Assembly: GCA_003990765.1 (NCBI GenBank)
Contig: RBNJ01000040.1
Location: 1 to 48,009, forward strand
Reading direction: 5' to 3'
DNA: 48,009 bases
From: Jimgerdemannia flammicorona
Lineage: Eukaryota
The notes beneath the pieces are model-generated. The model saw only the letters and a list, made by a program, of their open reading frames with translations, had not been told where the DNA came from and searched no databases. The position numbers and the translations under genes were made by a program. This document shows, one piece after another, positions 14,713-45,819 of this stretch; the first letter of the stretch is position 1, and each line of letters starts with the position of its first letter.

Positions 14713-14888
14713 ATATATATCAAAATCTTAGTAATCTTATAATGGTATATTTGTGATAGATTTAATCCAATAAAATTCTCTAGAATGAACATACTTGCTG
14801 AAATTTCTATCTATTAATATGAGAAGTAATCCTTTGAATATTTTTATCATTATTTAAAACTCCTTTTCTCTAAGTATTATTAGTGATA

Positions 14889-17349: not shown

Positions 17350-20300
17350 ATGCAAACACACATGTCAACAGATCAGTCTTCAACAGTTCACAGTACTGAT
17401 GATACTTCAAGTCAAACATCCCTGATAGTTCCACACCTTCCATGCAATCCTCACTCCGAAATCTGGCAACTAGTGCTCCGAACGAGTCAATCTGGATGGG
17501 ATTCGGATGGATTCGAATCAACCATTGTTTTGATTTCCAAATTAGACAATTAAATGTTTACATCAATAACTCGATTAATAATCATCCAAATTTGATGATT
17601 TTGGTGTCATTTGAAAGCCCTTAATAAGGCCTTTCTAACGATACCAAGAACATTAAAATCGGATTACGCGTTGCCGAGATATTAAATTTCCAAAATCGGC
17701 AAATCGAAGAATTTCCAAAATCGGCGATTCAGACGGTTTCCTTCATAACTCAGCAACGCATAATCCTATTTCAATGTTCTTGGTATCATTAGATAGGCCT
17801 TATTAAGGGCTTTCAAATGACACCAAGATCATCAAATTTGGATGATTATTCATCAAGTTATTGATGTAAACATTTAATTGTCTAATTTGGAAATCAAAAC
17901 AATGGTTGATTCATGGGATTTGAATCCCATCCGAGTTGATCTGGATGGGATTCAATCCAAATCAATCCGAATCCAATCCGGATTAAATTGACTCATTAGG
18001 AGCACTACTGGCAACATTGTGCTAAGATAAGAGATGATGTTGTTTGTAATTATTACAGGTAAAAAATTAAGACATACCTATTGATATAACTGACACTTTT
18101 GTTTAACACACACATGATACTGTTTCATTCACCCCTATAAACTGCATCAGCCAGAAGTTCAAAATGCTTGATGGTACAACTTTGAATATGTATTGACATA
18201 TAAAAGACAAGCACTCTGACAAAATCAAAAAGAACATAGAGATAAAAAAAATTGACATCCAAGCTGTGGTGGGTATATTTATCTGATTGCCTGACCATTT
18301 CTGTACCAATAACCCCATTTAATCAAAAATATTTAGCCATACTCTTTGGCAGAATTTTGAAATCGGCTCATTCACTGGATTATATGTACAGATCAGCCTT
18401 TCACAACCATTGAGAGTGATCAATTGCATAGTATCTTTGACCTTCTCAAGCATGATTTATATTTGCTAAGTGCTGATACTATTTGCAAAGATGTCCTGGA
18501 GGCCTATAGGAAGGAGCATGACAATCTCTGCCAGATACTTCAGATAAAATAAGGGCAGTACCATGACCTTTGCAAGCTGAATTATATATATTTTTTTATA
18601 AAGAGCTCACCAATGTAATCTTACATTCAATAAGTAGAATTCAGCAGACAAAATTTCATTTACGATTGACACATGGACATCCCCCAATGTAATTTCATTT
18701 CTGGGCATTACTAGTTATTGGATTGATCTTGATTGGTAGCTTAAATCTCTCACCCTTGACTTTGTCAAACTTGCTGGCCCTCATTCTGGAGACAATATCA
18801 CAGATGCTTTTATTAGTTATATCTGGGAGCTTGGGATCACAACTAAGGTAAAAAAGGGAGACTTGCTGTCAGGTTGGCATTTTGAGAGAGGTTCTAAAAC
18901 AAAACAGATTTTATTGGTTATTTATTTTTGCATAAATTTGCTGACTGAATATTTCATGTACAGATTTTGGCCATTATGACAGACAATGCTACAAATAACT
19001 CAATATTTTTCCAAGTTTTAGCAGCCAGCCTCAAACAGGAAAATGTAGCCTTTGGTGCAGAAAGCTGCCATGTGCAATATCAGGCCCACATACTGAACCT
19101 TACTATTCAGGACTATCTTATGCATGTAGACAAAACATCCGAGAGAGGAGGGGCCCTAAGTATAATTTTCAAGCTATGCAAACTAGTTGTATCAGTCCAA
19201 TTGTCTTTACAATGATAAGACAAATTTGCTACACAGTATAGGGCAATAAGTTTAGCCCTAAAAGAGCTTATATTGGACATCTGTATACATTGGAACTCAA
19301 CATTTATAATAATCTAGCACATGCTGGAGTTTGCTGTGGTACGCATCCTTTTTTTTCTTTGATTGGCTGAAGCAACTTGTTTCAGATAATTGAAGATTTT
19401 TTTTTTTTAAAAAAAAAAAACCAAAAAAAAGCCAATAGATTCAATGGTGGCTGCTGACAAGGAAATACAGGATAAGGCTCTAGGTGAAAGTGAGTGGGAC
19501 TTACTTAGAAATGTTGTCAGAGTTTTGGAAGTAAGTGGTGATTGCTCTGGCTCCATACTTGTTTTGTCTGCCTCCACACAATGCAATATCTCACTACATA
19601 TAACTGCTAGTGTTTGGATGATTGTATGAAGGATATAGTCAAATAAACGACCTCAACAATAAGCTCTGTAATACCAGTATACAACCTTCTGATTGACTGG
19701 CTAGAGGACAAGCTCAAGGACAGGCTGGAGGGTTGTAGTGATTTATAGTTAAGCCCAGATCAGAGAGACACTATGGAGGTTGCTCTAAGCAAGCTCAGAA
19801 AATACTACTCCAAAACAGATACTGCCATATACTCAATCAGTACAGGTATGTTGGCATGTAGCCATTGCCCCTTCCAAAACAGAGAAACCACCACAAAAAC
19901 TCACTCTCTTTTCTCTAAACAGTACTGGACCCATGCTTAAAGCTACAATATCATAAAGATCAGGGCTGGGAGCAGCACTTCATTGAGAGAACCAAGCAGG
20001 CTGTAATCAAAGTATACCAGAAAAACTATGTGCTACCACAAGGTTCTGACCAAAGTCCAGACAAATATGCTGAAGGATCCCTCCTGTCTCACATTTACTT
20101 CAGCAGAAAGAGGAAGAGGGAGCTGTCAGTAAAAGAGCTGCTGTCAATAAACAAACTTACCATTTATCTTACCAGTGACCACATGATCCTGCTAGAGGGT
20201 ACAGAGGTGCTCAACTAGTGGAAGGTGGGTTATCAGACAGGCATTGGGCCAATTTAACCCACTAATCTAACCACTGCTCTACCCACTGAGACATGCAGCT

Positions 20301-24003: not shown

Positions 24004-26755
24004 GTTGTTGTAGCCAATCTATTCTTACTCAGAAATGATAATCATCTATAGTATCATTAGATAATTTAAGGAATATGTAATAAAAGTCACTATGTTCTTT
24101 CATAAATAAGATATATATCATGATTGATAGAAGTACTCCATTATAGAACACTATTTATTAATATCAGTACCACACTCCAGCACCAGGACCTTAAATGTAT
24201 CAAGGTTATTGTGTAGCATTGCAGAGATGAGTACGGAGTTGATATCTTCCTATATAGCTCCAAATAAATTGCAGAGCATCCAAATTATTTCATAATGTCC
24301 TCCATCTACTACCAGTTGTAATGCTGTTTAGTTTCTCCAATCTAGGATCCTAATATCAGTATTTAATCTTGTACAAAGCATTCTTACAACCTCTGGATGA
24401 TTTTTCACCACTGTAATATATAGTGATGTTATTCTACCATATCCCTGCAGATTAATATTAGCCTTGAGATAAGTAACAAATATCTTAATGAGTTTAAGAT
24501 CTCTCAATATGATAGCACTATAGAGCAGTGTCTAATATTTGTAGGTCACTATTCGACCTACCATATATTCCATAATAACTATTCTGGGGTCCAATAACCA
24601 CTGGGTCAGCATTTTGGTAAGATATGGAAGTCTTTAAATTATAGTATTAATAGCAAGTTCATTATCAATAGATACCTCTACAACTGGTTCTTGCAATTCA
24701 GTAGTAAGGACAGAATGTTTTTGAATATATAATTGGGCTATATCATTATCATATTGACTAGTGTTGGCACCACAATCATTTACTAAGACTCTGAATATAT
24801 TGTAGTCATTATTTAGTATAGTAGAGATGAGTGTCGAATTGATATCCTCTTGTGTAGCTCCAAACAGATTATATAGCATACAAATTATCTGGTGGTGTCT
24901 TTTATCTACTGCCAATTGTAGTACTGTTTGATTGTACCAATCTCTGATTGTAATATCAGCACCAAACCTAGCATAGAGCATTCTTACAACTTCAGAATAA
25001 TTGTACTCTACTACAATATACAGTGCTGTAATTTTATCATATCTCTATAGGTTGACATTAGACCTGAGACCAATAATAAGATCCTCTATAAGGTTGAGAT
25101 CTCCCAGTAGGGTAGCTTCATGTAGTACTGTCCAGCATTCATTATAGTACATAATTTCATAAATCTCATATCTCATAATAATTGCCTCAGGATGTTTAAT
25201 TAAATTCTGTTTATATCTCCAGTTCAGCCATTCTATAAAATATAGAACTCTTTCAACTATTGTATTGTAGGTAGTTTTGGAATATATGCATACTACTCCT
25301 CTACTTCTAAATATTTGGGTAAAGTCATCACTTTTGTTTAGACTGGCTGCTATATATCATAATACTATACCATTACTATGTTCAATGAGATCAATACTAC
25401 AATTATATATCAGAACTGTGAATATATTGAGATCATTATTTTAAATAGCTGAGATGAGTGCAGAATTGATTTCTTTCTGTACAGCCCTAAATATTTTACA
25501 GAGTATTTTAATTATCTCATAGTATTCTCTATCTATTGCCAGCTGTAGTATTGTTTGATATTACTGATCTCTAATTTCTATATCAGCACTATATATAGTA
25601 TAGAGCATTTCTACAGCCTCAGGGTAATTGTTCTCTACTGCAACATATAGTGGTATCATTTCATTATCTTGATAGTTGATATTAGCCTTGAGTTCTACAA
25701 CCAAAATGATAATAAGTTTGAGGTCTCCTAGTTTAGTGGCCTCATGGAGCAGTATCCACTCATTATTACATATAATAACTCTACCAGCCATATATTCTCC
25801 AATGACTATTTTGGGATCTAATTGCCACTGGAGTTTGTTAATTATGATATCAATTATATATTTACTTATATTGATAATTAGCAGCTCAGTGATATTATGG
25901 TCAGATTGATCATGAGTAGCTATATCTTATAGGTAGGTATCAGTCATAGATATACCATCATTATCAATCAATAGCTCTGCAATAGGTTCTGATACCTCTT
26001 GCTGCTACTGGTTAGGTCAATGAATTCAATCATTTGGAAGAGTGGTAATATTCCATGGAGGAGATATAATAGTAGACACCTCAGCTATAGTATTGATTGC
26101 CCATTTATCTGTAACTATAATATTGGTTTCCTATTTACCTTTGACTATAGTATTGGTTACCCATTTACCCTCAATTATAGCATTGGTTATATTTTCATCC
26201 TCAATCATAGTATTGGTTTCCCATTCATCCTTGACTATAGTATTAGTTGCCTATTTATCCTTATTTGCAACATATAACTCTGTGGCCTGTTTATATATTT
26301 CTGGTATGTTGGCCCAATTAATCTTGATATTTAAAGACATAGCTACATCATACAGATTGATAGTAATGACTGGCAGTTCAATCATAGTATCAATCATTAG
26401 TTCACCATTATTACTAATAGGTGGTTTATGTATATTAGTTATAATATCAGATAGAGTAGTATCAATCATCAGTTTATCCTCAGTAACTATAGATGGCTCT
26501 GTATTCTGTTGAGGTTCTGTATTCTGTATGTATAGATTCAGAGGGATAGGTAACTCTATGGCCTATACAATATTTAAAGATGTGGCTATATCATATAGGT
26601 CAATTAGTTTACCATTATTACTAATAAGTGGTTCATATATATTGGTTATAATATCAGAGCAATCTGTAGAAGTATAGTAGTGGTGGATATTTCAATCATT
26701 GCATCAATCATCAGTTTATTCTCAGTAACAATGGGTGGCTCTATATTCTATACAT
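24004..26755 (-). pseudogene. middle part of the ankyrin-repeat pseudogene (three ~0.6-kb ankyrin modules plus low-complexity repeats)
   Basis: LLHEATKLGDLKLIIILVVELKANINYQD, PLYVAVENNYPEAVEML, GADITIRDWYNQTVLQLAV recur at ~24.2-24.6, 24.8-25.2 and 25.4-25.8 kb. Confidence 0.8.
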
Positions 26756-27222
26756 TGTAATGTAGCAGACACTTAACCTTGGAAGTACATCAGATTTCTG
26801 TATCTTAAAAACTTGATCTTCTTTGACTCTGCAGAGTCCTCAGGATGCAGGGGTGGGTGAGTTCGAAGTGTATCTGCCTGCAGGCTTACTAGTTCCTTTG
26901 CTTTTCTCTTTGCTTTGAACTACTTCAATCTGAGGTTTATTCACTCTAAGATACTGGGTTATTTATACAAGTTTACTAGCTATAAGATGGCTAAGTAATG
27001 AGTCATTTTCTACAAGTATTAGATCTTTTAACATCTGCTAGGATTTTGCTGATTACTGATATTCTAACATCTTCTGAATCTTTGCAAATTTTAAAGTTTC
27101 TGCACTTTGCAGAATATGACTGCTATTTTTAAGGCTATACTATATTGGGAATTGAGTTCAGGTACTATGATCAAATGTCTAATTCTCCTGATTCATGTTA
27201 CTAATTCAGATCAACCATCACA
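26756..27222 (-). repeat. 3' LTR of Gypsy A
   Basis: Direct repeat of 32996-33462; abuts the polypurine tract (acttcctcctgaat on +). Confidence 0.95.
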
Positions 27223-27725
27223 ACTTCCTCCTGAATAGATGATTTATCCCTGAAATATCCTATTCACTTGAACTCCCAGGCTTCTACAATTTGTATCTCC
27301 TTGTACTGTGTGATTTATGCTATTACATTCTTCCAGTATTGTCTCCTGAGATATCTGAATTCTCCTAGAGTTACATCTCGAAAATGAGCTAGAGCTGGCT
27401 CATTATCTTTGAATAACTTGTGCACTCTCTTGGTAATTGTGATCTGAATGTAGGAGAGCTGATATTCTCTGATCCAGTCTTCTTTTCCCATTTTTGGCTT
27501 TGAATTCAGTAGCTATCCTATCTTGAAGTATTCCTGGAACTCAGCTCGGTTCTGGTAGGTCTTAAAGTGTGAAATTTGTGATAAGTATGTTTGCACTATA
27601 CTCTGGATACTGTTGAAGGATTCCTCCATTGTGGGTGGCTCAGTAGAACACCACTGTCTTTCTATGACTCATTGGACAGCACTTGTGATCTTGAGAGCAG
27701 CTGCATTACTTTGTTGACTGGTCAT
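27201..27725 (-). pseudogene. ORF3 of Gypsy A (post-integrase accessory protein, ~175 codons)
   Basis: MTSQQ...EFQEYFKIG*LLN...ITKRVHKLFKD...VTLGEFRYL...IQEEVVMVDLN in one frame, with only transition-type internal stops; homologous to the family B LTR ORF. Confidence 0.7.
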
Positions 27726-28907
27726 GATACTTCTTGAGTCAGTTTCAGTAAATGGTAGTGGAGATGATTGTGCCTGAGAGTTTTCATAGCCAAAAGGTGG
27801 TCCCTTTTATATCTTACACAAGGTAAGGTCCTTCCTACTTAGGCTCCAGTTTTCATGACTATAAAGCTTCTACTATGTTCTGATATACTAGGACTTTGTC
27901 TCCTATCTTGATAATCTCCAGGGGCTTGTAATTTTTTTCTGCATTATTCCACTATAATGTCTGCACCTTGTTTATATAATCCTCAGCCTTCTTCCTGATT
28001 TGGTATAGTTTCCGTATCTCTATGTCCATACATTTCCATACAGCATCTCTATTAGACAATAGAGTTCCTTGAGAACTTTCTTCTCCGAATAGCATTTCTC
28101 GAGGGGTAAAGTGGGTGCTTTGCGATTGGATATCTCGGAGAGCAGATAATACTATTGGCAGATAGTGATCCCAGTTTTCATAGTTATCACAGATCTTGGC
28201 AATAACATTCTTGAGAGTCTTGTTGGTCCTTTCCACCTGTCCATTTCCTTGAGGGTGATAGAGTGTAGTCTGAATATGCTGGATCTTGTACTTCTTGTAG
28301 AGAACCTCAAAGAACTGGTTTATGAATTCTATTCCTCTGTCTGTAGTTACTTGCATTGGGGTCTTGAATCAGCAGATGATTTCTTTGTAGAAGAAATAGC
28401 AATTAACTGTGCATTGGCTTTTTTGAGGGATCCTGCCTCTATCCATTTTGTGAAGAGGTCTATTATGATGATGATGTATTAGTTGCCAGTCAGGGTCAAG
28501 GGTGGAGGGCCAATTACATCTATTGTGATGTGGGCAAATAGTACTGGTTCTATATGTGATGATTCTGGGGCTTGATTTCGTTGGTCTTGTTTCTGTTTCT
28601 GGTATTTGTTATATATCTTGACAAATCATCTGATATCTTCCTCCATTCCTGGCCACCACATTGTTCTTCTTGCTTTATCATATGTATTGGTTCCTCCTAA
28701 ATGGCCAAGTTCATATACTGATTTTATTGCTTGCTCCTTCTTGTATTCTAGTATAACCAGTAGTTTTCCTTTCTTCAGTATTTCTCCATCAGTCTTGAAT
28801 TGTTTCCATGTTCTGTTGATAATCATTTATATTCATTCTTCTAGATGTTGGGGCATCTTTCACTGTCCTAGGTATGTGATGATTCCATAGTAGAGTTCCT
28901 TATTCAT
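27706..28907 (-). pseudogene. integrase of Gypsy A, in its own reading frame
   Basis: MNKELYYG..., GHLGG, WWPGM, TTDRGIEF, YHPQGNGQVER, KLEPK*EGPY; no chromodomain. Confidence 0.88.
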
Positions 28908-31900
28908 GATTAATTTGCTGGTTGGAGGTCCTTTGAGGTGTCTGTGAGAGGGTATCTGCATTGGCATTGGTTCTTCCTGGGTGGTGTACAATGGTTACAT
29001 CATATGCTTGTAACTTCATGATCCATCTGGCATAGATTCCTTTGGGTTGCTCAGTGGTCAGTAGCCAAGTGAGGGCTGAGTGGTCTATCTGGATGGTGAA
29101 GTGTCTTTTGGCAAGATAGTAGTGGAACTTTTCTACAGCCCAGATAACTGTGAGACACTCCAACTTGTATGATTCATATTCTTTTTCAGCTCCTCAGGTT
29201 CCATGGCTGAGATATGCAATGACATACTCTACTTTGTCTTTCTTTTGAGTTAGGACTGCTCCTAGTCCTTGTGCACTTGCATCTATCTGAAGGATGAATT
29301 CTTGGGTCCAGTCTGGTCTTCTAAGGATGGGTGCTTGGGTCAGTCTGACCTTGAGCTCATCAAATACTTGTTGCTGGCTGTCTGTCCATTGGAATTTGAT
29401 GTCCTTTTTGTTCAGTTCATAGATTGGGCTTGCAATGTTGGAAAATCCCCTAATAAATCTGCAATAGTAGGAGGCAAGTTCCATGAAGGCTTGGGCTTCA
29501 GTAATAGTAGTGGGTCTTGGATATGCTGCTACTGCTTGTATCTTGAGGGGGTCTATATGTGTTCCATCTCAGTTGATGATATGAACCAGGTAGGAGATCT
29601 CAATTTCCACAAACTTGCATTTCTTGGGCTTGATGTAAAGACCATATTCTCTCAGCTTCTCTATTATCTGCTGAATATGCTGCAGATGTTCTTCAGCTGT
29701 CTTGCTGTAGATGATTATATCATCTATGTAAACCATCATCCATCTTCCTATATCATAGTGGAAGATTTTGTTCATCATTTGCTAGAAGCTTACTGGTGCA
29801 TTGCACATTCCGAATAGCATTTGCAGATAGACATAGGTTCTGTCTGGAGTGATGAAAGCTGACTTTTCACTTACTGCTTCTGTGAGACCAATTTGATAGA
29901 ATCCTGAATATAAGTCCAAAGTGCTGTAATACTGTGCTTCATCTCCTAGGGTTATGAGAATATCACTGATAAGGGGCAGTGATTGGCAATCCTTCTTAGT
30001 GACCAGGTTGAGTTTCCTATAATTGGTGCAGAGCCTTGGGGCAAATTCTCCCGGCTTGCTTCCTTTCTTCAGGACTAGTATAACTGGTGAAGCCCAAGGG
30101 CTGCTGGCTTCTTTGATGATACTAGCTTCTTCCATTTGCTTGATTTCTTCTCTAAGCCATTCATGGTAGGCTGGCAGGATGGGTCTTGCCTTCTGATAAA
30201 TTGGTTTGGTGTCTTCTGTGTCTACATCATGATAGCAGTGTGGGGTCTTTCCTTTGATATCTCTGAAATCTGTAGCAAGGACATCCTCAAATTTATAGAG
30301 TATCTTCTTGAGTTTCTTCTTGAATGAAAACTTATTTCTAATGGTATAGCTATGCTTGTTTGTAGTTTCCTCCTTCTTGTATTCCAGTTTGGTAATCTTG
30401 GTACTGGTGAATACTCCTCTTCTAGTAGATCCAAATTCTTTTCTTTCTCTTCCTGTTTCTTTCAGTTTCTTAACTTCTATGATCTTTGGTTGTAGAATCG
30501 GAAAGATCAATATCTGCACCAATCAGTTCTTCTTCTTGATTGGGAATGGGATTGTAGGGTTGTGATTCCTGATGATGAGTAGGATTTCTCCAGTATAGTC
30601 TGAGTTAATGACTCCTCCTTCGATGGTAATTTTGCTTTTAGCCAGACTGCTTCTTGTCTTGAGAATTCTGACATGGTCCTTTGGTATGGTCATCTCCAGG
30701 CCAGTTGCAAGTAGGGTAGTTGTCTGGGGCTCCAGTACAGTTTCTTCTACAGTGGTGATGTCCATTCTGGCTGCATTTTCTGACTTGTATTCTGGTAGAA
30801 CTGCATCTGGGTAGATCTTCCAAATTTTGACCTTGATTTCTTCTTTATCATCACTGTCCTCCAGGAGGACTGGTGGTTCATCATCTTCTTCCTCCTGTTC
30901 TTTGGCCTGTTTCTCAAGAGCCTTCTGTCTTCTTTGTTGGTAAATCTCTTTGATTTTGCCAGTACACTTGTAGCAATCATTGATATGCTCCATATAGTAC
31001 ATTTGGATCCCATGGGGGCAGACTCCTTGTAGTGCATATCCTTCTGTGATCTTCTTACACCATTCTTCTTCACTCATCCATCCAACTTTCTTCTTCTTTT
31101 TCTGAGTGGTCACCATGTAAGCTTCCTCTTGTTCACTCCCTTCTTCCTCCATATTGGGCAGGACTCCCTTGTTGATGTTGATGGGAATTTGTATCTTCTG
31201 TCCTTGGTAGATGATCTGCATCTTCTGTGCATTGAGGTCAATTATTGCTCTGGCTTTGTGAAGTCATTGATTGCTGATGAGGATGTCATAGTTGATTGTA
31301 TTGGTTACAATCACATCTACTGGGATGGTTGATCCTCTAAGCTTGATGGAAACATCTTGGATTTTTCCCAGTAGAGTAGCTCTTGTACCATCTGCTGTGA
31401 TGAATACCAATTTGGTTACTTCTTCAACTTTCCAGCCTAGGCAGTCTGCTGTTTTCTTGCTGAGGAGACATCCTTCTGCTCCAGTATCAATGATGGCTTC
31501 AAATATTCTGTCCTCAATTTGACAGGTTGTATAGGCAGAGGTCTTGCAGTTGTCTTTGCTTTCTTTTCCTAAGTCTTCTTGAACATTGTTGGCCTTGGTT
31601 ATCTTCCAACCTTGCTTCTTGGTTGTTTCAGCAAGTTCAAACCTCATTTGCTGTCTGAATGTTGGGATTTCTGTGAGCTGACTAAAGGTTACATTGACCT
31701 TTTGTTGGCTGAGGTCCTTGAAAATATCATACTTAAAGGTCTTGGTCTTGTGAAGCTTCTTTTCTTTTTCTCCCTCACTGGCTGGAGTGGTTCCTCAGAT
31801 GATATCTTGAACTACTTGTTCCAGCTCTATATCTTGATTCATTTCTTCAGCTTGACTTTCTGTAGCGGTTTCTATCTGTTTTTCCACCGGGTTCTTCTTA

Positions 31901-32881
31901 GGTCTTCCTGGTGGCCTCTTGTAAGGTTTCTTGCAAACATCCTTTTTAGTAGTCTGTGCAGGATATACCTCCTATTTCTCTTCATCAGAGTCTCCAATTT
32001 CCTTGAATGTGATGATGTTGGCCTGTTTCTTATTTCTAGTAGCATTGCTCAGCTGGGCCTTGTGCTTGGTTCAGCTCATGCATTTATATGAGTAGTGGCC
32101 TTCCTCTCCACAGCTGAAGCAGATACCTTTCTTCTTGTCTGTAGTAGCAGCAAACTTCTGAATTGAGCAGCGATCTCTTCCTCTGATTTCTTTTACTATG
32201 TCTCCTAGGTGGGCAGTCATTTCAGTGAACTGCTTGGTGAGCTCCTCCATAGGGTCACTGTTTCTCTGCTGCTCTGTAGCTCTTGGCTGAGGTGTGTTTC
32301 AATTGATCATTATAGTAGGGATCACACTAGTTGCCTTGGGTGCTTTGATTCTAACTTCAGTAACTCTTTCCATTGTATAGTCTTATGGGTGTCTGGCTAT
32401 CTAATATTGCTGAGCATAGGTGACCTTCTGTGGCAGATTCAAGACTACTGGTGATGAGAAGATGGCCATAGCTATCTCTGGGTGTGAAGGTTGCTTCCGC
32501 TACTTGATCTCAGATAGCATCAGCATAATCTGCAAGGATTATCTGATATCGGATTCTAGTATAGAATGTGTTTGGATCCTCACTCATTCCTTGGCATATT
32601 GTGTTGAGCTGGTCCTTCAGGGCTTGCTTGATCTCATCTGTGTAATAGGTGTTTCGGAGCCAGGTCTTCTTTGCTGTAAGTATAGCATCAGCATCATTTC
32701 CTATATGGGTTGCAGCTGTGAATGCTGCTCTGGCAGGACCTCATAGGCTGAAGAGCATGAGGGCTACTTGCTGTGCTACTGTTAGGGTCCTTACAGCAGC
32801 ATACTGCTCAAAATCATCAATGAAGGTAATGATTGATTCATCTGAGGTATATCTATAGAATACTAGTGGTCTCATATCCAT
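28900..32881 (-). pseudogene. gag-protease-dUTPase-RT-RNase H of Gypsy A
   Basis: CFSCGEEGHYSYKC, IIDTGA, TRSSLA/GVINSDYTGEI/EFGST, PWASP, YIDD, QIDASAQGLGAVL, IDHSAL. The six ORF fragments from 31647 to 28900 share one frame. Confidence 0.92.
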
Positions 32882-32974: not shown

Positions 32975-32992
32975 ACCAGCTAATGGGTACCA
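32975..32992 (-). promoter_or_regulatory. primer-binding site of Gypsy A
   Basis: TGG-starting 18-mer 3 nt inside the 5' LTR; near-identical to family B 43832-43849. The cognate tRNA was not identified. Confidence 0.7.
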
Positions 32993-32995
32993 AGT

Positions 32996-33462
32996 TGTAA
33001 TGTAGTAGACACTTAACCTTGAAAGTACATCAGATTTCTGTATCTTGAAAACTTGATCTTCTTTGACTCTACAGAGTCCTCAGGATGCAGGGGTGGGTGA
33101 GTTTGAAGTGTATCTGCCTGCAGGCTTATTAGTTCCTTTGCTTTTCTCTTTGCTTTGAACTATTTCAATCTGAGGTTTATTCACTCTAAGATACTGAGTT
33201 ATTTATACAAGTTTGCTAGCTATAAGGTGGCTGAGTAATGAGTCATTTTCTATAAGTATTAGATCTTTTAACATCTGCTAGGATTTCACTGATTGCCAAT
33301 ATTCTAATATCTCCTAAATCTTTGCAAATGTTAAAGTTTCTGTACTTTGCAGAATATGACTGCTATTTGTAAGGCTATACTATATCAGAAATTGGGTTCA
33401 GATACTGCAATCAAATGTCTAATTCCCCTGATTCATATTACTGATTCAGATCAACTGTCACA
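32996..33462 (-). repeat. 5' LTR of Gypsy A
   Basis: Direct repeat of 26756-27222, followed by the PBS on the minus strand. Confidence 0.95.
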
Positions 33463-33680
33463 ACATACAAATCAGGAGGGGTAGCAGCATCCTGCAGATG
33501 GGTAGACTTGGCAAGATTTTGTTTGTATTTATATACAAAATACAATATAGCAGGCATTTCAATCATTGTATTGATCACCAGTTTATCCTTAGTAACAATA
33601 AGTGGCTCTGTATTCTGAACTGGCAGATTGGGTAGATTTGGCAAGAATTTTTTTATATTTATATATAAGATGCAATTGTA
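33463..33680 (-). pseudogene. 5' part of the ankyrin-repeat pseudogene
   Basis: QNTEPLIVTKDKLVINTMIEMP matches the repeat units at 26.35-26.75 kb on the other side of Gypsy A. Confidence 0.6.
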
Positions 33681-34199: not shown

Positions 34200-35947
34200 A
34201 CACTCACCATTCTACAAACAATCTGAATGAGTTAGCTCAACCCAAATAGATCATCTGATTGTGTGCCCAAACTGAGATTGCTCAAGGATATTTGATTTCT
34301 CTATTGAAATTTGTCATTGAGAACTAGGTGGTTCAGAATAGTTAGTTGTATAATGATCAAATATTTTTCCACCAGCTATGTTGAGAGCATTCTATATAAT
34401 ATATATTTACAAAATTATTATTGGTGAATTTTTAATTAGGCCAACTCTGGTTATGCACCCAAGGCTACATGATCATGTGCCCCATGAGTTTGGTATTACC
34501 AAATTAATGAAATATTCTTTCAGATAACCATATGATCACTCATATAGTTGTACAGCAGTTGATAATAACTCAGGCCAGCCTGTGGAGCAATTGTGGCTAA
34601 TTCTTGTTACTGAGATATGCCAATTTGGCTGTAAAAAAAAAATTGAAGTTTATGTGAGTACCTTGAGGTACAGGGTCCATTATGACTAACTGGACTCAGA
34701 TCAAGACCTTTTTTGAGCCCTAATCCTCTTGATAACCATATTTTCTATAGCTTATATATATGTAAATTTACATAACTGAGTTTTTTATATGATATCTTCT
34801 TCTACTACTTTATCTGCCTTACCTACTTCTAATACTTCTATATCCACATCAGCTGCTACTATTGCTAGATGACATGACTATACTCTTACTGTTATCTCTT
34901 TATTCAGCCAAGCTATTGCTCACTCATCTTCATTATCTGAAGCTATTGCTGATCTATCTTTGTTACCTCAAGCTATTGCTAGCTCTTTCTTGTCTTTGTC
35001 TATCCAAGTTGTTACCACTCCATCCTTGTCCACCCAAGTTGCTGCCAGCTTATCATCAGTTTTTCTTATAGACAAGTACAAAATTTCTATTAATGTCCTC
35101 TTTAGTTATCTATGCATGAGTGTTTTTTAAACAATAAATAGAAAATTACCTAAAGGAGCAAAGCTGTCCAGAAATATGAAAAAAGATGAGTTGCAGGAGC
35201 AGTTTTATAAGTTTCTTGAGCTTGGGGATGGTGGTTTAGTAATAAATATTCAAGATCCTGTCACTGTTTGCAAGATCTGGAGTTTTTGAGAATTAATCAT
35301 AGATATGATAAAGTACTTAGATATGTAAACCAAACTGCATCTGAGAAGTCTTTTGAGGATTACACATGTAACAATTGCCACCATAAGGTCTGGAGACCTT
35401 TCAGAAATACCTCTTTATAAGCAGATATACTTGAATCTATCAAAACAACTGAGCCATTATTAATAACAATACAGATCACCTCAAGTATACCCACTCTTGC
35501 TATTATTTCTCAAGTGAAGAATATTGTAGAGACTGTTTATCAATGGGAGGATAGAACAATCAAGCAGCTTACAGATCTATACCACAATATAACTAATTGG
35601 CATATTTTTAAGAATACAGTTTCTAAACATAAAGTAAGAATCAATTTATTTAAAATGGGCAGAAATTGGTAGGAATCATTAGTAAACTACATATTTTAGT
35701 AGAAAAAATGTTGAATTGTGCTAATCTCAAATTCTTTACATTATTCTTAAATTATAGCATCTGTATGAAGAATATATTAGTCATCAAAGTAATATAGATC
35801 AATTTGTTACAGTATATTCAAATGCTAATGCAAATAGATAAAGAATTATATAGAGTGTCAAAAAGATAATAGACAAATTGGAAGAATATAACAGTTATAA
35901 TAAGTAAGTATGATTGAGTGAGGATTAAACAAATATATAATATAAGT
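34200..35947 (+). pseudogene. heavily decayed plus-strand coding remnant, possibly the N-terminal part of the recombinase gene
   Basis: Cys-containing fragments (VCPN*DC, CNNCHH), a 30-bp repeated Ser/Ala-rich linker at ~34900-35050 and intron-like signals; family not recognised. Confidence 0.35.
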
Positions 35948-38165
35948 TATCACGTAGTGATTACCGAGTCCTTCAAATATACCAGATTCTCTTCAAGATA
36001 TATCTCTTAGACTAACTCAAGTTTGTTATAAGCAAGTTCTTATTGGAGTGCCTTCCCAAGGTCTTATAGTCCTCAAACTTCTTATCTTTAACTGTCTTGT
36101 TATCTCTTATATTGCTTACAAGGAAGTATGTGTATTGTACTGAGAAGACTGACTTTATTTCAAAGAAAATAAGAGGGATATTTATACAAAATATAATTCA
36201 ATGGTTGCTAAGATATAAAGCTAAATATAAATTCTAATAACTAAAACTACTAAGTTCCAGGGTTGGCACTAATGGTTATACAGGTTCAGGATGCTGGTAT
36301 AATTCAGTATCACATTAGAATACCAGTGCTGGAATAATTTCATGTCACCTCAGAATACCAGTGCTGGCATTATTCAGTGTTACATAAGAATACCGGTGCT
36401 GGCATTATCCAGTGTTACATGAGAATACTGGTGCTGGCATTATCCAGTATAACAAAGAACTTAGAGTAGAAAGTTCAGGATCATGGGGGCTTCATCATCA
36501 TTATCATCATCACTAAAGGAGATAAGATCCACAAATTCATCATTTTCACATACTTCAATATTGCGTGGGATGACATCATTACTGATGACATCATCACATT
36601 CAGTGGGGAAATCGGGGGCTCTCCAATCTATGAGGTTCTCTTCTACAAAATAAGGGACAAATGTGAGGTCTTAGAGAGATCTAACCCGGATGCTTGGGCC
36701 TTGAAATAATGAGATCAATCCTTGTAGGAATTGGTCTGGGTTGTCTTGGAGGATGGGGTGCTAGAAGTCTTCTACTTCATCACTATTGAGGGTAATAGTG
36801 GACTGGGCTTCTGTAGCCACCCTGGCTTCTAGTGCATTGATATGATGGGATGATAGATCTCTGAAATCTGAGACTCTAATATACTTTAAGTTGGGGATCG
36901 ACTATGGTGCATGCCTGAAGATCTGATGGATCTTCTTAGCTATCCTTATTTTGCATATATCCATGGGAGTGGCATCTTGTAGCTCTTGAGTGCTGGCTTG
37001 TGGGAACTCCCAGCAGAGGAGGTTTCCTATTTCATACTTCTGCCACATTTGGAGGCATTCGGTAGCAATGGTGATCCTTGTTTCCATTTCATGGCAGTAG
37101 AGGATAAAGTGATAGGGATCTACAGTACCCAGGTTGACACTAGGAGTCCTTCTTGAGCAGGTCCCCATGGCTCTTCTGATGTCTTGGAACATTCTTTCTT
37201 CAACCAAGGTGCCTTGGTGGTTCTTTGATCTTGAGGTTTGGTAGGCAGCAGGCATTTTATTTGTGGTAAGTCTTTGGGCTATTTTGGAATCGGTGGGTCT
37301 TATTATTTGCTGCTACTGCGGTTCCTTGATCCTTCTTTTATATTCTTCAGGATGCTTGTACTGTGGTCACAGTGACTCATATAGTGCTCTGAATGAGTCA
37401 ATCCGGATGGGATTCGGATGGATTTGAATCCCATCCAGATCAACTCAGATTGGATTCGAATCCCATCCAGATCAACTCGGATTGGATTCGAATCCCATCT
37501 GGATCAACTCGGATTAGATTCGAATCCCATCGGGATGGATTCGAATCAACCATTGTTTTGATTTCCAAATTGGACAATTAAATGTTTACATCAATAACTC
37601 AATGAATAATCATCCAAATTTGATGATCTTGGTGTCATTTGAACGCCCTTAATAAGGCCTTTCTAATGATATCAAGAACATTAAAATCAGATTACGCGTT
37701 GCCGAGATATTAAGGAAACTGTTCTATTTGACGAAATTTCCAAAATCGGCAAATCGAAGAATTTCCAAAATCGGCGATTCAGACGGGTTCCTTCATAACT
37801 CAGCAACGCATGATCGGATTTCAATGTTCTTGGTATCATTAGATAGGCCTTATTAAGGGGTTTCAAATGACATCAAGATCATCAAATTTGGATGATTATT
37901 CATTGAGTTATTGATGTAAACATTTAATTATCTACATAATTTGGAAATCAAAACAATGGTTGATTCGAATCCATCTGGATGGGATTCAATCCGAATCAAT
38001 CCGAATCCAATCCAGATTAAATTGACTTGTTAGGAGCACTAGACTCATAGTTGATCATCATTGCTCATCTCGTATGCTGTATAATCTTCTTGTGCTCCGA
38101 TCTGGTGGCTTGCAAGGAAAGGCTGTCTCCTGTGCTGATGTCATCATTCTGTGGTCACCATTACA
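35948..38165 (-). repeat. 3' LTR of Gypsy B (interrupted by a hAT MITE)
   Basis: Colinear with 43853-45367 after removing 37382-38049. Confidence 0.93.
37382..38041. mobile_element. non-autonomous hAT MITE (foldback), copy 2
   Basis: Same TIRs and arms as 17471-18007; perfect 8-bp TSD gactcata; the empty site is visible in the other B LTR copies. Confidence 0.95.
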
Positions 38166-38467
38166 TCTTCCTCCTGAATAAGGATCTTCCTGAGCATTCT
38201 TATTCATTGGTCCAGTCCTGAAAAATTTGCTGATCCCATAATCTCTGGCAAGGGGTTGAAAAGTGGTGTTTATGGGCTGGTGTCTTCTCTTTGTATTTTG
38301 GTGTGATGGTGAAGAGTCGCTCCCTTCATATAGAGCAAGGGCCTGATTCTGATCTTGACCAATCGGTTGATAGTTTGAACTCCTCTGACTTCGAAAGTCT
38401 CACAGATGAGTAGTTGCCAGTGCTGTATCCCTTAGAGAATGGTCCAGACAGATAGCCTGCTGGTCAT
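38144..38467 (-). pseudogene. candidate post-integrase ORF of Gypsy B
   Basis: MTSRLSVW...ICETFEVRGVQTINRLVKIRIRPLLYM...LIQEEDVMVTTE*. It crosses the polypurine tract in the same frame as family A ORF3 (IQEEVVMV). Confidence 0.45.
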
Positions 38468-38478
38468 GAGACATGCTG

Positions 38479-39726
38479 TTATAATTCATGGACTAGAATC
38501 TTGTGAGCAGTCATCACATTTTGCTTCTCTTGTATGGGTTCATGGTACTTCTTGAGTCTGTTCCTATGTACCATGGTAGGCAGTATGGTCCCTGAGATTT
38601 TTCTAAGCCAGATAGTAGTTATCTTGATATCTTGCATGTAGAAGGGTTCTTCCCATTTGGGCTCCAGTTTTCGTGACCATGAGGCTTCTACCATATTTCA
38701 ATACAGTAGAACCTTTTCTCCAATTTGGATGGATTCTAGGGCCTTGTGATTCTTTTCTGCATTCTTCCTTATCAGTGCTTGTGATTTGGTGATGTAATCT
38801 TCAGCTTTCTTCCTGATTTGGTATAGTCTCTGGATTTCTGCATCAACCCATCTCCAAGTTAGGTCTAGATTTGTGGCTGAGGTTCCATCAGAATCTTCTT
38901 CTCTGAAGAGCAGCTCTCTTGGGGTAAAGTGTATGCTCTATGATCATATATCTCATAGGATAGAGAGGGCAGTTGGGAGATAGTTATCCCAATTCTCATA
39001 TGTCTCTGAGATCTTCACTAGGATGTTCTTGAGGGTCTTGTTGGTTCTTTCTGTCTGTCCATTTCCTTGAGGGTGGTATGTGGTGGTCTTGATATACTGG
39101 ATGTTGTATTTCTGATACATTATCTTATAGAATCTATTGATAAATTCCATGCCATGGTCTGTTGTGATTTGCTTTGGTATCTTGTAGTGGCAGATGATTT
39201 CTCAGTGCAGGAAGTCAGCTATAGAGAGGGCATTGGCTTCTTGTAATGCTCCTGCCTCTATCCATTTGGTGAAGAGGTCTATAATAACTATAATATAGTA
39301 GTTTCCTGATAGTGTTACTGGTAGTGGTCCAATGATATCCATTGCAATGTGGTGGAAGAGGATAGGCTCAATTCTTGATGACCCAGGTGCCTGGTCTTAC
39401 TGATCTTGTTTCTGTTTTTGGCACTTATCACACCCTTTGAAAAATTGGTGCAGGTCTTCTTCTATCTTGGGCCACTACATAGTTCTTCTTATCTTGTCAT
39501 ATATGTTGGTTCCTCCTAAATGTCCTTGCTCATGTACTTTCTTTATTACTTGATACTTCTTGTGTTCGGGTATTACTAGCTTTTCTCCTTTTCTGAGTGT
39601 AGTGTTGTCTAGTTCAAACTGTTTCTAAGTCCAGTTGATAATAGTGATTGTCCAGGGTTTGAGGTGGTTGGGCATCTTCTGCTGCCCAAGATAGCTGATT
39701 AATCCATAGTATAGCTCCTTATTAAT
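38479..39726 (-). pseudogene. integrase of Gypsy B, in its own reading frame
   Basis: (I)NKELYYG, H..GHLGG, CDKC, MDIIGP, TDHGMEF, YHPQGNGQTER, KLEPKWEEPF, VHRNRLKKY. Confidence 0.9.
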
Positions 39727-42700
39727 GTTGAATAGTCTTGATGGGAGTGTTTCGGGGTGTCCTTGAGAGTACATCAGTATTGGTGTTGGTCTTTCCTGAG
39801 TAGTGCTTGATAGTATAGTCATACTCTTGCAGCCTGTAGATCTATCTGACATATATTCCTTTGGGGTTCAGAGTATGGAATAGCCAGGTAAGAGCAGAAT
39901 AGTCTGTTTGAATAGTGAAGTATTTCCCAGCTAGGTAGTAGTGGAACTTGTCTACTGCCCAAACTACTGCTAAGCATTCGAGCTTGTATGACTCATAGTT
40001 CTGTTTTGCTCTGCTAGTACCTCAGCTTGCATAGGAGATGACATATTCATGTCCATCTTTCTTCTGAGCTAGGACTGCTCCAAGTCCTATAGTACTTGCA
40101 TCTGTTTGCAGGATGAATTCTAGGTTCCAGTCTGGTCTTCTGAGGATAGGTGCTTGAGTCAACCTGGTCTTGAGTTTATTGAAGGTCTCTTGGCGCTCCT
40201 TGGTTCATTCAAATTTGGTTTCCTTCTTCAGTAGCTCATAGATAGGTGCTGCAATGTTAGAGTATCCTTTGATGAATCTTCTGTAGTAGCTGGCCAGTCC
40301 AAGGAAGGCATGGACTTCTGTGGTTGTTCTGGGTCTCAGGTAGGCTGCAACAGCCTCGATCTTCATAGGGTCTATATGGATTCTGGTCTGGTTGATGAGG
40401 TGTCCTAGATAGGCAATTTCTTGAGCTGCAAACTTGCATTTCTTGGGCTTGATGTAGAGGCCATGCTTCTTGAGCTTCTTGAGGGCTAGCTGTATGTGAT
40501 TGACATGTTCCCATGTTGTGTTACTGAAGATGATCACATCATCAACATAGAAAAAGAGCCATTTTCCAATCTTGTTGCTGAAGACTCTGTTCATCATTCA
40601 CTGGAAACTTGCTGGGGCATTGCACATTCCAAATGGTATTCGCAGGTAGATATAGGTGGCATCAGATATGATGAAGGCTGATTTCTCACTGGCATCTTGA
40701 GTGAGACCAATCTGATGGAAGCCTGAGAACAGATCCAAGGTGGTGTAGTATTTGGCTTCGCTTCCAAGGGTGGTAAGGATTTCTTGAATATTTGGCAAGG
40801 GCTGCCTATCCTTCTTGGTGATGGCATTGAGTTTCCTGTAGTCAATGCAGAGTCTTGGCACAAACTCTCCAGGCTTGCTTCCTTTTTTCAGGGCAAGGAC
40901 AATGGGTAAGGCCCAGGGGCTGATAGCTTGCTTGATGATTCCAGCTTCTTCCATTTCCTTGAGTTCTGCTTGCAGCCACTCTCTGTAGGCAGGTGGTATG
41001 GGTCTGGCTTTCTGGTAGATGGGCTTGGTATCATCAGTATCAACTTCATGGTAGTACTTGGGTTCTTGATTGTGGATATCCCTGAAGTCTGTAGCAAGTA
41101 CTTCTTCATTCTGGTGCAGGATCTTGAGAAGTTGTTCCTCTAGGGGAAAGTTTTCTCCAATAGTATATATGTGCTTATTCTGGTCCTTGTCTTTCTTGTG
41201 CTCAAGTTCAGTAGTCTTGGTGGTGGCATAGGCTCCTCTTCCAGTAGATCCAAAGCCTTGTTCTTCTCTCTTGGTCTTGATGAGTTCGATGGCTTCTATG
41301 ATCTTGGGCTTCTTGATTTCGTGGATCAGCATCTGGCCAATCCTGTCATGCTTCATGACTTCAAAGGGGGTGGTGTGGTTGTGATTTATGACTATGAGGA
41401 AGATCTCACCAGTGTAATCAGAGTCAATTACTCCTCCTTCAACTGAGATTTTTCTTTTGGCCAGACTGCTCCTGGTCTTGATAATTCTGGCATGGTTTTC
41501 TGGCAGCTTGACTCCAATTCCAGTATAGTGGTCTGTGGTTCGAGGGTAGCATCTTGAATGCTGGCAAGGTCCATTCCTATAACTCCTTCAGTCTTGTATT
41601 CTGGGATCTTGGCTTCAGGGTGAAACTTCTTAACCTTGAGGGTAATGTCTGATTCTTATTCCTCCTCATCATCACTGTCAGCCTGAAGTTCTGGGGGCTG
41701 GTCATCTTCTTCGGCTTTCCTTTTTGCTTCAGCAGCTTCTTGCTCATATTTCTGTTGGTGGATTTTCCTGACTTCACTGATATAGGACCAGCAGTCATTC
41801 AGGTGTTCAGAGCAGTACATCCTAGTACCATGGGGGCATCTTTCTTAAGGGGCATACCCATCGATGATCTTGTTGTACCACTGCTCATCTGTGAGCTTGG
41901 GTGTCTTGTTCTTGTTCTTGTTCACTGAGTGCATGAAGACTTCTGTGTCCTCTTCATCTTCTTCCTCCATGTCTGGTAGGACTCCTTTATGGACATTGAT
42001 AGAGACTCATACCTTTCTTCCTCTATAGTTGATCTGCATCTTCTGGGCATTGAGATCAATGATGGCCTTGGTCTTGTGAAGCCATTGGTTGCCAATGAGG
42101 ATATCATAGTTGGTGGTGCTTATAACAATCACATCTACTGGGATGGTAGCTCCTCCTATCTTGATGGGGACTTCTCAGATTTTGCCAAGTGGGGTAGCTC
42201 ATGTACTATCTGCTATAACATAGACCATCTTAGTGAACTCTTCAATATCTCATCCTAGGCAGTCAATTACCTTCTTGCTCATAAGGTATCCTCCAGCACC
42301 AGTATTAATGATGGCATCAAAGATACAGTCTTCAATCTGACAGGGGGTATAGGCTGATGTCTTGTGCTGGTCTTCAGATTCTTCACCTGAGTTCTCAGAA
42401 TCTTCCTGTACATTGTGAGCTTCTACAATCTTGTACTCTTGATTCTTGGCAGTCGTTGTAAGTCCTACTCTCAACTGCTGTCTGAAGGTAGGGACTTCAG
42501 CTAGCTGTCCAAAGGTGGCATTGACCTTCTGTTCCTTGAGATCCTTATAGATATCATACTGGTGGATCTTGGTCTTGCACAGCTTCTGTTCCTTCTTGCT
42601 TTCACTTTCTCCTGAGACTGGAGTAGTGCCTTCAATGATTTGGTGGGTAGCTTCATCTAACTCCATGTCTTGATCAATCTCCTCGGGTTGGGTCTTACTT

Positions 42701-43732
42701 TGAATAGTGACAGCTGGGGTCTTCTTTGGTCTTCCAACTGGCTTGCTGTTGCTTTTCTTGTCATAGGGCTTGGACTGGGTTCTGGTACCTTCAGTAGCAG
42801 GGTAGAATTCAAGCTCCTTATAGTATTCTTCATCATCAGTGTCACCAATCTCCTCGATGACTACTACATTGGTTTGTTCTCTAGTTCTGCTAGCATTGCT
42901 TGGTTGGACTTTGGGTCTTGTTTTGGTCATGCAATTCTTTGCATAGTGGCCTTCTTCTCCACATCTGAAGTATGTAATATTGCATTCTTCTGTAGCAGCT
43001 GCAAATCTCTGCACTGGTCTCCTGTTGGTACTTCAGACTTCTCTAACAACATCACCAAGGTGTGCAGTCATCTCAGCGAACTGCTTGGCAAGTTCATCCA
43101 CTGGGTCAGCTTTGGCTATCTTGGGGGTAGGTGGAGTTGGTTGTCTGTTTACAACTGTGGCGGGTATGATACTAGTTGGCTTTGATGGCTCTATCTAGAT
43201 GCCAGTTATTTTCTCCATTGAGTGTTCAGCAGGGTGTCTGGCAGTCCAATATCTCTGTGCAAAGACCACTTTCTGATCAAGAGTCAGTGCAGCTGGGGTA
43301 CACTGGATACTAGGGCAATTTCGGGTGAACTCCTTTGAGGAAGGTTGAATCTGCTATTTGTTCCTTGAGGCAGTCATCATAGCCAGCCAAGATAATCTGG
43401 TAGCAGATTCGGGTATAGAATGAGTTGGGATCTTCACTAAGTCCCTGGCAGATAGTATTGAGTTGATCCTTGAGAGCTTGCTTAATCTCTTTGGTATAAT
43501 ATGTTGTTCTGAGAAAGGCCTTCATATTGGCAAGTTTGGCTGCACCAGCATTAGCAATAGTGGCTGCATTAAACTTGTCTCTGATAGGTCCTCTGAGGCT
43601 GACTGATAGAAGGGCCAATTGAGCATCCACACCAAGGGCTCGTATGGCAGCAAATTGTTCAAAGTCTTCAATAAAGGTCAGGATTGACTCTTCAGTAGTA
43701 TATCCATAGAATATAGGAGGGTGCATTTCCAT
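39722..43732 (-). pseudogene. gag-protease-dUTPase-RT-RNase H of Gypsy B
   Basis: MEMHPPIFYG; (Y)FRCGEEGHYAKNC; IINTGA; TRSSLA, GVIDSDYTGEI, IGQML, QGFGSTG; LCIDYRKLN; YVDD; QTDAS. Confidence 0.92.
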
Positions 43733-43852
43733 CTTATCTTGAATTCTTACAAGGGTGACTCTTGTAGTCAGGGTAGTTATTGTGGGGGTTGTATGTTTTT
43801 CAGCTTGAAAGTGAGGGATTTGTCTTGAATCACCAGCCAATGGGCACCAAGT

Positions 43853-45367
43853 TGTCACATAGTGGTTGCTGAGTCCTTCAAATATGTCAGATTCTCTTCA
43901 AGGTATATCTCTTAGACTAACTCAAGTTTGTTATAAGCAAGTTCTTATTGGAGTACCTTCCCAAGGTCTTATAGTCCTCAAACTTCTTATCTTTAACTGT
44001 CTTGTTATCTCTTAGATTACTTACAAGAAAGTGTGTGTATTGCACTGAGAAGACTGACTTTATTTTAGAGAAAATAAGAGGGGTATTTATACAAAATATA
44101 ATTCAATGGTTGCTAAGATATAAAGCTAAATATAAATTCTAATAACTGAAACTACTAAGTTCCAGGGTTGGTACTAATGGTTATACAGGTTCAGAATGCT
44201 GTTATAATTCAGTATCACATCAGAATATCAGTACTGGAACAATTTCGTGTCATCTCAGAATACCAGTGCTGGTATTATCTAGTGTTACATGAGAATACCA
44301 GTGCTGGCATTATTCAGTGTAACAAAGAGCTTAGAGCAGAAAGTTCAGGATCATGGGGGCTTCATCATCATCATCATCATCACTGAAGAAGATGAGATCT
44401 GCAAATTCGTCATTTTCGTGTGCTTCAATGTCATGCGGGATGACATTATCACCGATGATGTCATCATGTTCGACAGGGATATCAGGGGCTCTCCAATCTA
44501 TGAGGTTCTCTTCTACAAAATAAGGAACAAATGTGGGGTCTTGGGGAGATCTAACCCAGATGCTTGGGCCTTGGAATACTGAGATCAATCCTTGCAGGAA
44601 TTGGTCTGGGTTGTCTTGGAGGATGGGGTGCCAGAAGTCTTCTACTTCATCACTATTGAGGGTGATAGTGGACTGGGCTTCTGTAGCCACCCTGGCTTCT
44701 AATACATTGATATGGCAGGATGATAGATCTCTGAAATCTGAGACTCTAACATACTCTAAGTTGGGGATCAACCATGGTGCATGCCTGAAGATCTGATGGA
44801 TCTTCTTAGCTGTCCTTGTTTCATGTATATCTATGGGAGTGGCATCTTATAGCTCTTGAGTGCTGGCTTGTGGAAACTCCCAGCAGAGGAGATTTCCTAT
44901 TTCATACTCCTGCCATATTTGGAGGCATTCAGTAGCAATAGTGATCCTTGTTTCCATTTTACAGCAGTAGAGAATAAAGTGATAGGGATCTGCAGTACCC
45001 AGGTTGACACTAGGAGTCCTTCTTGAGTGGGTCCCCATGGCTCTTCTGATGTCTTGGAACATCTTTTCTTCAACTGAGGTGCCTTGGTGGTTCCTTGATC
45101 TTGAGGTTTGGCAGGCAGCAGGTATTTCATTTGTGGTAAATCTTTGGGCTATTTTGGGATTGGTGGGTCTTGTTGTTTGCTGCTACTGCAGTTCCTTGAT
45201 CCTTCTTTTATATTCTTCAGAATGCTTGTACTGTGGTCACAGTGACTCATAGTTAGTCATCATTGCTCATCTCATATACCGTATGATCTTCTTGTGCTCT
45301 GATCTAGTAGCTTGCAAGAAAAGGTTTTCTCCTGTGCTGATGTCATCATTCTGTGGTCACTGTTACA
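43853..45367 (-). repeat. 5' LTR of Gypsy B (1515 bp)
   Basis: TG...CA ends; adjacent PBS; contains a 30-bp tandem array (~44190-44320). Confidence 0.93.
44331..45263 (-). pseudogene. LTR-encoded ORF of Gypsy B (~310 codons)
   Basis: One frame MMTNYES...MFQDIRR...YEIGNLL...TAKKIHQIFRH...VRVSDFRDL...DDDDDDEAPMILNFLL; the frame is retained in all three LTR copies, with only scattered transition-type stops. Confidence 0.75.
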
Positions 45368-45819
45368 ATATATATATATATATATATATATGTATCACTT
45401 CTATCAATGTAATTTCAATTTTATCTTATAATAGATGAGGATAAATACTGCAATTAATGTGACTATCAATGCATGAGTTCAACAAGATGAGGTTGAAGAT
45501 TATACAGATATACTTGACATTTCAGCTGAAGAAGAAGCTATTGATGGAAATAATTCAAATTGAAAATTTCCAGCTCTTATTAATGATACTTAAGATGATC
45601 TTGATGATGATGATATAAAGAACCCTCTATAGTAGATTATACCTCTCTTATATAAAAGCAAGAGGTTCATGATATTAGTACAGTTATAGTAAAAAACTAT
45701 AATCAACTATAAAAAAAAAATAAAAAAAAAACTATAATCAATGAGTGATTATTTCTAATATATATTAATATATATACATCAGACTTCTTATTTATTATTA
45801 TTATTACATATTTTAGAAT

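Follow-up and report, generated by a model that had tools for sequence, protein, structure and literature searches.

Two decayed LTR elements in the window

The window, that is, the whole stretch of 48,009 nt analysed here from Jimgerdemannia flammicorona contig RBNJ01000040.1, contains two full-length, decayed LTR elements, A and B. Both lie on the minus strand, as do all the features described below, and they have in common a series of domains comprising zinc knuckle, protease (PR), dUTPase, reverse transcriptase (RT) and RNase H (RH), then integrase (IN). In each, a stretch starting with TGG follows the 5′ LTR and a clear polypurine tract is present. The two copies are heavily mutated (CpG observed/expected 0.07-0.08).

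Element A is bounded by a 470-bp 5′ LTR (32995..33464), which has a TATA box at 33207, and by a 3′ LTR (26755..27224) that is 92.3% identical to it. A PBS-like stretch directly after the 5′ LTR (32976..32992) is a candidate primer-binding site. The gag-PR-dUTPase-RT-RH ORF (28900..32881) is decayed and has Pfam matches to zf-CCHC (weak, E 0.0024), aspartyl protease, dUTPase, RVT_1 and RT_RNaseH; there is a private frame break in gag near 32490, and the ORF ends 18 codons past the start of an ADALSR-type motif. As the first-pass annotation had proposed, the domains from protease to RNase H keep one frame: the motifs of PR (31494), RT (YIDD, 29730) and the end of RH (28959) share it, with decay stops within. 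This ORF overlaps, at 28900..28907, a stand-alone integrase ORF (27706..28907), also decayed and with a private frame break in its core; the HHCC and D,D35E motifs are kept in its relatives. A TATA box lies within the IN Asp-Ile-Lys codons (27805..27811), 86 nt ahead of the ATG of ORF3 (27264..27725), which encodes about 153 aa of a helical family without a recognised fold. The polypurine tract is at 27224..27235.

Element B has a longer 5′ LTR of about 1.5 kb (43849..45368), which carries a gene of the ORF3 family (HMM match 44673-44927) and two TATA boxes, one for this gene at 45212 and the main one at 44091. The gag-PR-dUTPase-RT-RH ORF (39719..43732), decayed and with private frame breaks, overlaps at 39719..39726 a decayed stand-alone integrase ORF (38479..39726; Pfam Integrase_H2C2 and rve). 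The polypurine tract (38167-38176) is followed by the 3′ LTR (35944..38165), which is split by a palindromic insertion at about 37400-38040 and is 92.1% identical to the 5′ LTR across 1403 aligned nt. It too holds the ORF3-family gene (36761..37255; HMM match 36800-37063, E 1.5e-7), preceded at a distance of 87 nt by a TATA box (37342); in B the homologue of ORF3 has been relocated to the LTR.

The RNase H/integrase junction and its inheritance

Re-reading the two junctions confirmed the positions first assigned to them. The RH frame of A ends cat gaa TAA (stop at 28902-28900), and the IN ATG (28907-28905) starts 5 nt ahead of this TAA in the +1 frame. The corresponding codon of B is ATT, at 39726, where the RH frame reads cat TAA TAA. 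We compared these junctions with those of other genomic copies. Both ATG and TAA were kept in 29 of 30 family A loci, the window copy counted (the best 30 of 40 scored, from 2640 candidates). The family B sample (the best 30 of 40 scored, from 1910 candidates) had TAA in 30/30 loci and, as start codon, ATG in 27, ATA in two and ATT in one, the window copy; judged against these copies, the ATT of B is a private substitution and not a non-AUG start. None of the 60 A and B loci had RH and IN in one continuous frame. What decay looks like in these copies is shown by the gag frame breaks, which are private to the window copies: among the other copies, 10 of 12 in family A and 12 of 14 in family B have the capsid and nucleocapsid/protease motifs in one frame.

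Copies within each family are 92-93% identical. A and B are 70% identical to each other and collinear, with identical junction sequence; by this comparison they are sister families that share one inherited ancestral split, and not the two independent families that they had been taken for. The divergence between A and B falls at the third codon positions of the RH frame before the ATG and of the IN frame after it. This switch of frame at the ATG argues that both ORFs have been under selection with the split in place. In a third family of the genome, D, an ATGA overlap was present in 24/24 loci in which the junction pattern was found. The search for this family returned 27 of 30 loci that belong to it, the remaining three being an ordinary fused family; RH reaches the ATGA stop in 14 of the 27 and an earlier decay stop in three, while 10 were not parsed.

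A break produced by decay or by an assembly artefact would be in keeping with the heavy mutation and the private frame breaks of the window copies. It is refuted by the recurrence of the same layout in 60/60 A and B loci, in a third family and in metagenome elements that are intact, with open gag-pol ORFs of 1577-1651 codons and open IN ORFs, and we regard its probability as negligible. The RH/IN frame break is inherited and, as first proposed, not decay; the split itself is near certain.

The closest full-length IN homologues are stand-alone ORFs of 410-430 aa, 39-44% identical, with a Met-Asn or Met-Asp start at the same column. RH and IN were both held by 67 of 137 loci, of which 37 were fused, 19 clearly split and 11 (L103, L115, L128, L136, L142, L184, L186, L188, L194, L195 and L197) set aside and not counted as split, because they are without the homologous start Met and resemble fused elements in decay; the status of L142 is ambiguous, and only the first RT-RH tree labelled it as split. 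L082 nearly duplicates L078. Twenty of the best 42 metagenome loci contain both domains, and 19 of these have them split. Of longer RT-RH homologues, IN was absent in 9/9 best and in 12/14 best. Retrotrans_gag and Ty3_capsid matches were found in the split relatives L078 and L090. Long homology matches were also considered as spliced fungal gene models; this was rejected, as the named ones are fused animal elements.

All 18 split rows of the IN tree fall, together with two fused rows, in one branch (SH-aLRT 97). Constraining this tree to hold the split rows together gave a likelihood 9.6 lnL better (p-AU 0.67), and with the RT-RH+IN alignment the same arrangement had p-AU 0.30, so a single origin of the split is allowed but not proven. 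The base of the first RT-RH tree was poorly resolved, with three loci left out for short RT matches, and seven long-branch rows were left out of the later tree. A, B, D and L062-L065 form a tree-defined subclade (SH-aLRT 96-100). On these trees and alignments the split marks an old Ty3/Gypsy lineage, whose hosts are probably mycorrhizal-type fungi: one cluster member is annotated Funneliformis geosporum, and the Atlas clusters are commonest in Mucoromycota.

The integrase of this lineage has a well-defined beginning. Met stands at aligned position 1 in 16/16 integrases, most of them only 39-50% identical to the first sequence, and the IN ATG maps to profile position 1 at the DNA level too. We rely on these two results, since the Met found in 35/35 of a wider set is partly circular, ORFs having been picked from ATG. 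Position -3 of the IN ATG is A in 14 of 19 relatives, against a background of 36%. In the predicted protein a helical N-terminal domain is modelled with confidence from residue 3 onwards (pLDDT about 90). Among solved sequences the IN profile matches Ty3 Gag-Pol best (E 2.9e-52), and the closest fold to the model is PFV IN, the model resembling both PFV and Ty3 integrases. No match to a chromodomain, the mark of chromoviruses, was found at the C-terminus, and IN ends from a few to about 25 residues past KKYH. These alignments and models show that IN begins with a conserved ATG of its own, placed where the first helix of the N-terminal domain begins, so that a stop and a start take the place of the protease cut between RH and IN. 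In fused relatives the homologous position follows the RH-IN linker, which is the usual protease cut site.

Expression of the integrase and ORF3

To get clues on how IN is made, we examined the distance and frame between the RH stop and the IN ATG across the lineage. The offsets are -8, -7, -5, -1, -1, -1, +5, +5, +31, +42, +51 (L096), +65, +85, +92, +95, +159, +281, +311, +374 and +524 nt, and IN lies in frame -1, 0 or +1 relative to RH. Junctions are tight throughout the subclade of A, B, D and L062-L065, with offsets of -5, -5, -1, -1, -8, -7 and +5, that is, a start within 8 nt of the stop; there the frame and the length of the RH tail (17-32 aa) vary while the offset stays small. A test of this tightness gave a p of only about 0.006 for six junctions, if these are independent. 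In control frames a stop was found within the same interval in 15 of 35 cases, and in A and B in both alternative frames, such stops being common because Met-Asn starts create one. The IN/ORF3 overlaps of the same elements are looser (-8, -17, -26 and -50). A peak of synonymous conservation at the junction was not found in the A/B comparison, nor was a shared hairpin or calicivirus-type (TURBS) motif found near it by motif scan and folding z-scores.

A TATA box lies 35-84 nt ahead of the IN ATG in 7 of 13 spaced junctions, all from two sub-lineages, and has the same form as the TATA box of the LTR; this makes 7/19 relatives where 1.6 were expected. At tight junctions TATA boxes before IN were seen in 0/6 relatives and in 1/30 A, 1/30 B and 0/20 D copies.

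In most other A copies the ATG of ORF3 lies 8 nt ahead of the IN stop. ORF3 of family A is homologous to the ORFs that follow IN in split relatives, and no homologue was found in the 37 fused loci, whose flank lengths vary. Its model is confident (pLDDT 91.9). Pfam gave no match in the five members tested (L064, L071, L074, L078 and L144), the Atlas matches were at 0.84 or lower, and Foldseek returned none at E<=0.001 in the PDB or viral libraries, the best VIA Z being 4.8; this does not make the fold a new one. Of 10 relatives, 9 have a TATA box ahead of the first ORF downstream of IN (1.0 expected). In A copies it is formed by the Asp-Ile-Lys codons of IN in 25/25, whereas B copies encode the same amino acids with other codons and have the box in 0/24. 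Of all the observations made here, this synonymous contrast at a TATA box embedded in coding sequence speaks most strongly for an internal promoter. The A junction between IN and ORF3 is also tight, at -8, and yet has its TATA box; a tight overlap can thus coexist with an internal promoter and is no proof of coupling. The layout of gag-pol, IN and ORF3 that the first-pass annotation had described is real and inherited. To call it polycistronic is only partly right, as the TATA boxes of ORF3, and those of IN in the spaced relatives, suggest transcripts of their own.

The mechanism that we propose starts from the single ORF of Gag-PR-dUTPase-RT-RH, which stops just past RNase H. In the tight subclade, ribosomes terminating at the RH stop would restart at the overlapping AUG on the genomic RNA. 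This would yield less IN than Gag and RT, and would yield it in cis, close to the RNA that is destined for packaging. The uniform tightness of the subclade despite changes of frame and tail matches termination-reinitiation, and we give it about an even chance of being how IN is made in A and B. ORF3 would come from its own TATA-driven transcript, and relatives in which the spacer has grown may often use a TATA promoter for IN too. Free IN would find its way to the cDNA through contacts with RNA or with proteins of the particle, not within Gag-Pol.

The most serious competitor to reinitiation, though a distinctly less probable one, is that all members make IN from an mRNA of its own, with an internal promoter that has a TATA box in the spaced members and in A and B is TATA-less and placed inside RH codons; the overlap would reflect genome compaction alone. 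The internal TATA boxes of the lineage speak for it, as do the up to eight ATGs in long spacers, which would block scanning from the stop, the 40 nt that A and B have ahead of the IN ATG, which are C/A-rich, unstructured and 5′-leader-like, and the strong -3 context, which fits initiation by scanning. Yet the tight subclade shows neither a TATA box nor a shared synonymous motif upstream of IN, out-of-frame ATGs 46-62 nt upstream in L062 and L064 would allow only a very short leader, and a promoter leaves unexplained why the stop stays within 8 nt across changes of frame.

Frameshifting and splicing fare worse. A programmed +1 frameshift at the RH stop, giving an RT-RH-IN fusion, would solve the packaging of IN, and it is locally possible by geometry in A and B, where the IN frame stays open for 87-141 nt before the ATG, in overlap with the RH ORF. 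The shift that is needed differs among close relatives, however (+1 in A, B and L063; -1 in D, L062, L064 and L065), the frames do not overlap in 8 of 21 junctions, and one shift or one readthrough is unable to bridge 10 of the 21; moreover, such a fusion needs neither an invariant Met nor a purine at -3. The varied frames and offsets exclude a shared frameshift as judged from these junctions, and +1 frameshifting, which had been put forward among the general mechanisms, does not hold as one; for the programmed shift as such we see little chance. Just as improbable is splicing, whether a short intron removes the stop to give an RH-IN fusion or a spliced subgenomic RNA carries IN. In 12 of 19 relatives the 60 nt before the IN ATG contain a YAG, and two spacers are pyrimidine-rich; both would suit it, and foamy virus Pol offers a precedent for the spliced route in the excerpted text of PMC7828637. 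Against it, the last 60 nt lack YAG in the other 7 of 19, A and B have no common acceptor in the junction stretch compared, and 15 of 21 junctions, including those of A, B and D, are without a frame-restoring GT-AG intron of at least 45 nt. Taken with the unbridgeable junctions, this scarcity of frame-restoring introns indicates that IN is initiated separately.

That IN is packaged within Gag-Pol and released by the protease counts as a basic rule for both Ty3/Gypsy elements and orthoretroviruses. An integrase that is a separate gene has to have an unusual route of synthesis and delivery, and the lineage that breaks the rule is large and successful, with thousands of first-look candidates in this genome alone. 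The most far-reaching interpretation, held tentatively and with a little less than even confidence, is that an old fungal LTR lineage turned its polyprotein into a modular genome of Gag-RT, integrase and an accessory ORF3 without a recognised fold, each of them initiated separately, and has switched between stop-restart coupling and internal TATA promoters, some of them within coding sequence; integrase would be delivered outside Gag-Pol, by RNA-guided packaging or by transposase-like action on the cDNA, possibly with the help of ORF3. The lineage makes testable how integrase dose is set, how free integrase finds the cDNA and whether LTR elements use termination-reinitiation, and natural controls are at hand in the matched tight and spaced junctions and in the A/B contrast at the coding-embedded TATA box. 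The split layout may also mislead annotation: Atlas clusters of Mucoromycota integrases of 392-417 aa are automatically named 'Gag-pol fusion'.

Comparison with known systems

The elements resemble Ty3/Gypsy elements (Metaviridae; Ty3) in their LTRs, candidate PBS-like site, polypurine tract and PR-RT-RH-IN order, and in the Ty3-type capsid of relatives; they differ in having IN as an ORF of its own, with a non-env ORF3 after it. The ICTV profile places IN inside pol (PMC7879559), as does a survey of fungal LTR elements in the portion consulted (PMC3248453). With IN outside pol, the lineage is on its sequence features best filed as a variant allied to Ty3/Gypsy, and not among the canonical Metaviridae. 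The dUTPase of A and B sits between PR and RT, as in the fungal Gypsy elements PosPlaTy3-5 (Postia) and those of Phanerochaete and Tuber in excerpts of PMC2864245; these are described there as having one fused ORF or two, with no mention of a separate IN in those excerpts, and are set apart from our elements by that description. In the full-text literature (subscription journals, Repbase Reports and supplements being outside its coverage), the passages retrieved held no description of a separate IN ORF in LTR retrotransposons, and those of PMC5009743, PMC13465315, PMC2774666 and two preprints do not mention one.

At sites of viral reinitiation the start lies no more than 20 nt from the stop that closes a long upstream ORF, and the cases named in the available part of the source include caliciviruses (TURBS), the fungal viruses HvV190S and CHV1 and the non-LTR retrotransposon SART1, with no LTR retrotransposon among those named in that part (PMC10275272). 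A and B (-5), D (-1) and six relatives (-8 to +5) are similar in having stop and start within about 20 nt, the spaced relatives not. A TURBS-like motif or conserved structure was not found here by motif scan, folding z-scores or synonymous conservation, and the geometry varies across the lineage. Unlike in the programmed +1 frameshift of the Ty1/Ty3 type, there is no single conserved direction of shift. A Gypsy-like integrase as a stand-alone ORF is known from integrase-only transposons of the Ginger/GIN type; here, by contrast, IN lies within a complete LTR element with gag and RT. Foamy viruses, according to the excerpts of PMC7828637, express Pol apart from Gag and package it through RNA contacts, and our elements likewise appear, from their sequence, to have an enzyme gene apart from Gag. 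In foamy viruses, however, the whole of Pol is separated by splicing and IN is still cleaved from it, whereas here RT is fused to Gag and only IN is separate.

TATA boxes and ORF3

In family A a TATA box (27805-27811) lies within the integrase codons, and the same arrangement was found in the related loci L063, L064 and L066-L068. The integrase codons of family B carry no embedded TATA box; its ORF3 has been relocated to the LTR, where the homologue has TATA boxes of its own (37342 and 45212). The ORF3 proteins (window 27264-27725; 2613-3053 in the related locus L144) form a helical family of approximately 140-155 aa that is restricted to this lineage, and the confidently predicted model had no clear fold match.

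Layout and cargo of related elements

The Gag-Pol of some split elements, in which integrase is a separate ORF, continues C-terminal to RNase H in a non-integrase extension of 219-370 aa (L078:3476-4441; L144:119-943; proteins P0216, P0218, P0221, P0222, P0226 and P0229). In another split element, L090:299-6944, gag is likewise in a different frame from pol, which brings the number of ORFs to four (gag, pol, integrase and an extra one); the ORF after the integrase of this element (6546-6944) is helix-turn-helix-like. Besides ORF3, cargo 3′ of integrase in split relatives includes a NUDIX hydrolase (L073:1945-2889, E 1.4e-10), and in family B a possible additional ORF of ~108 codons is located between the integrase stop and the LTR (window ~38143-38467, minus strand). 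Elements with RNase H and integrase fused (L207, L212, L224 and L122) are positioned within or next to the split clade, and may be re-fusions or early branches. Lineage elements L144 and L145 (proteins P0388 and P0389) come from MAG records labelled as bacterial and archaeal, and contaminating eukaryotic DNA is the most likely reason for their presence there.

Other features of the window

A third Gypsy-type element (~7300-13440, plus strand), with dUTPase-like and RT sequence, is broken off within RT by a family-B LTR (13440-14720), and its RNase H/integrase junction falls outside the window. A palindromic MITE-like element occurs twice (17487-18007 and ~37400-38040), one copy being an insertion in the 3′ LTR of B. 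A fragmented GC-rich gene at 2549-4956 (plus strand), its pieces probably exons, encodes LodA_C and ferritin-like domains, a pairing of bacterial type in what is likely the genome of a fungus.
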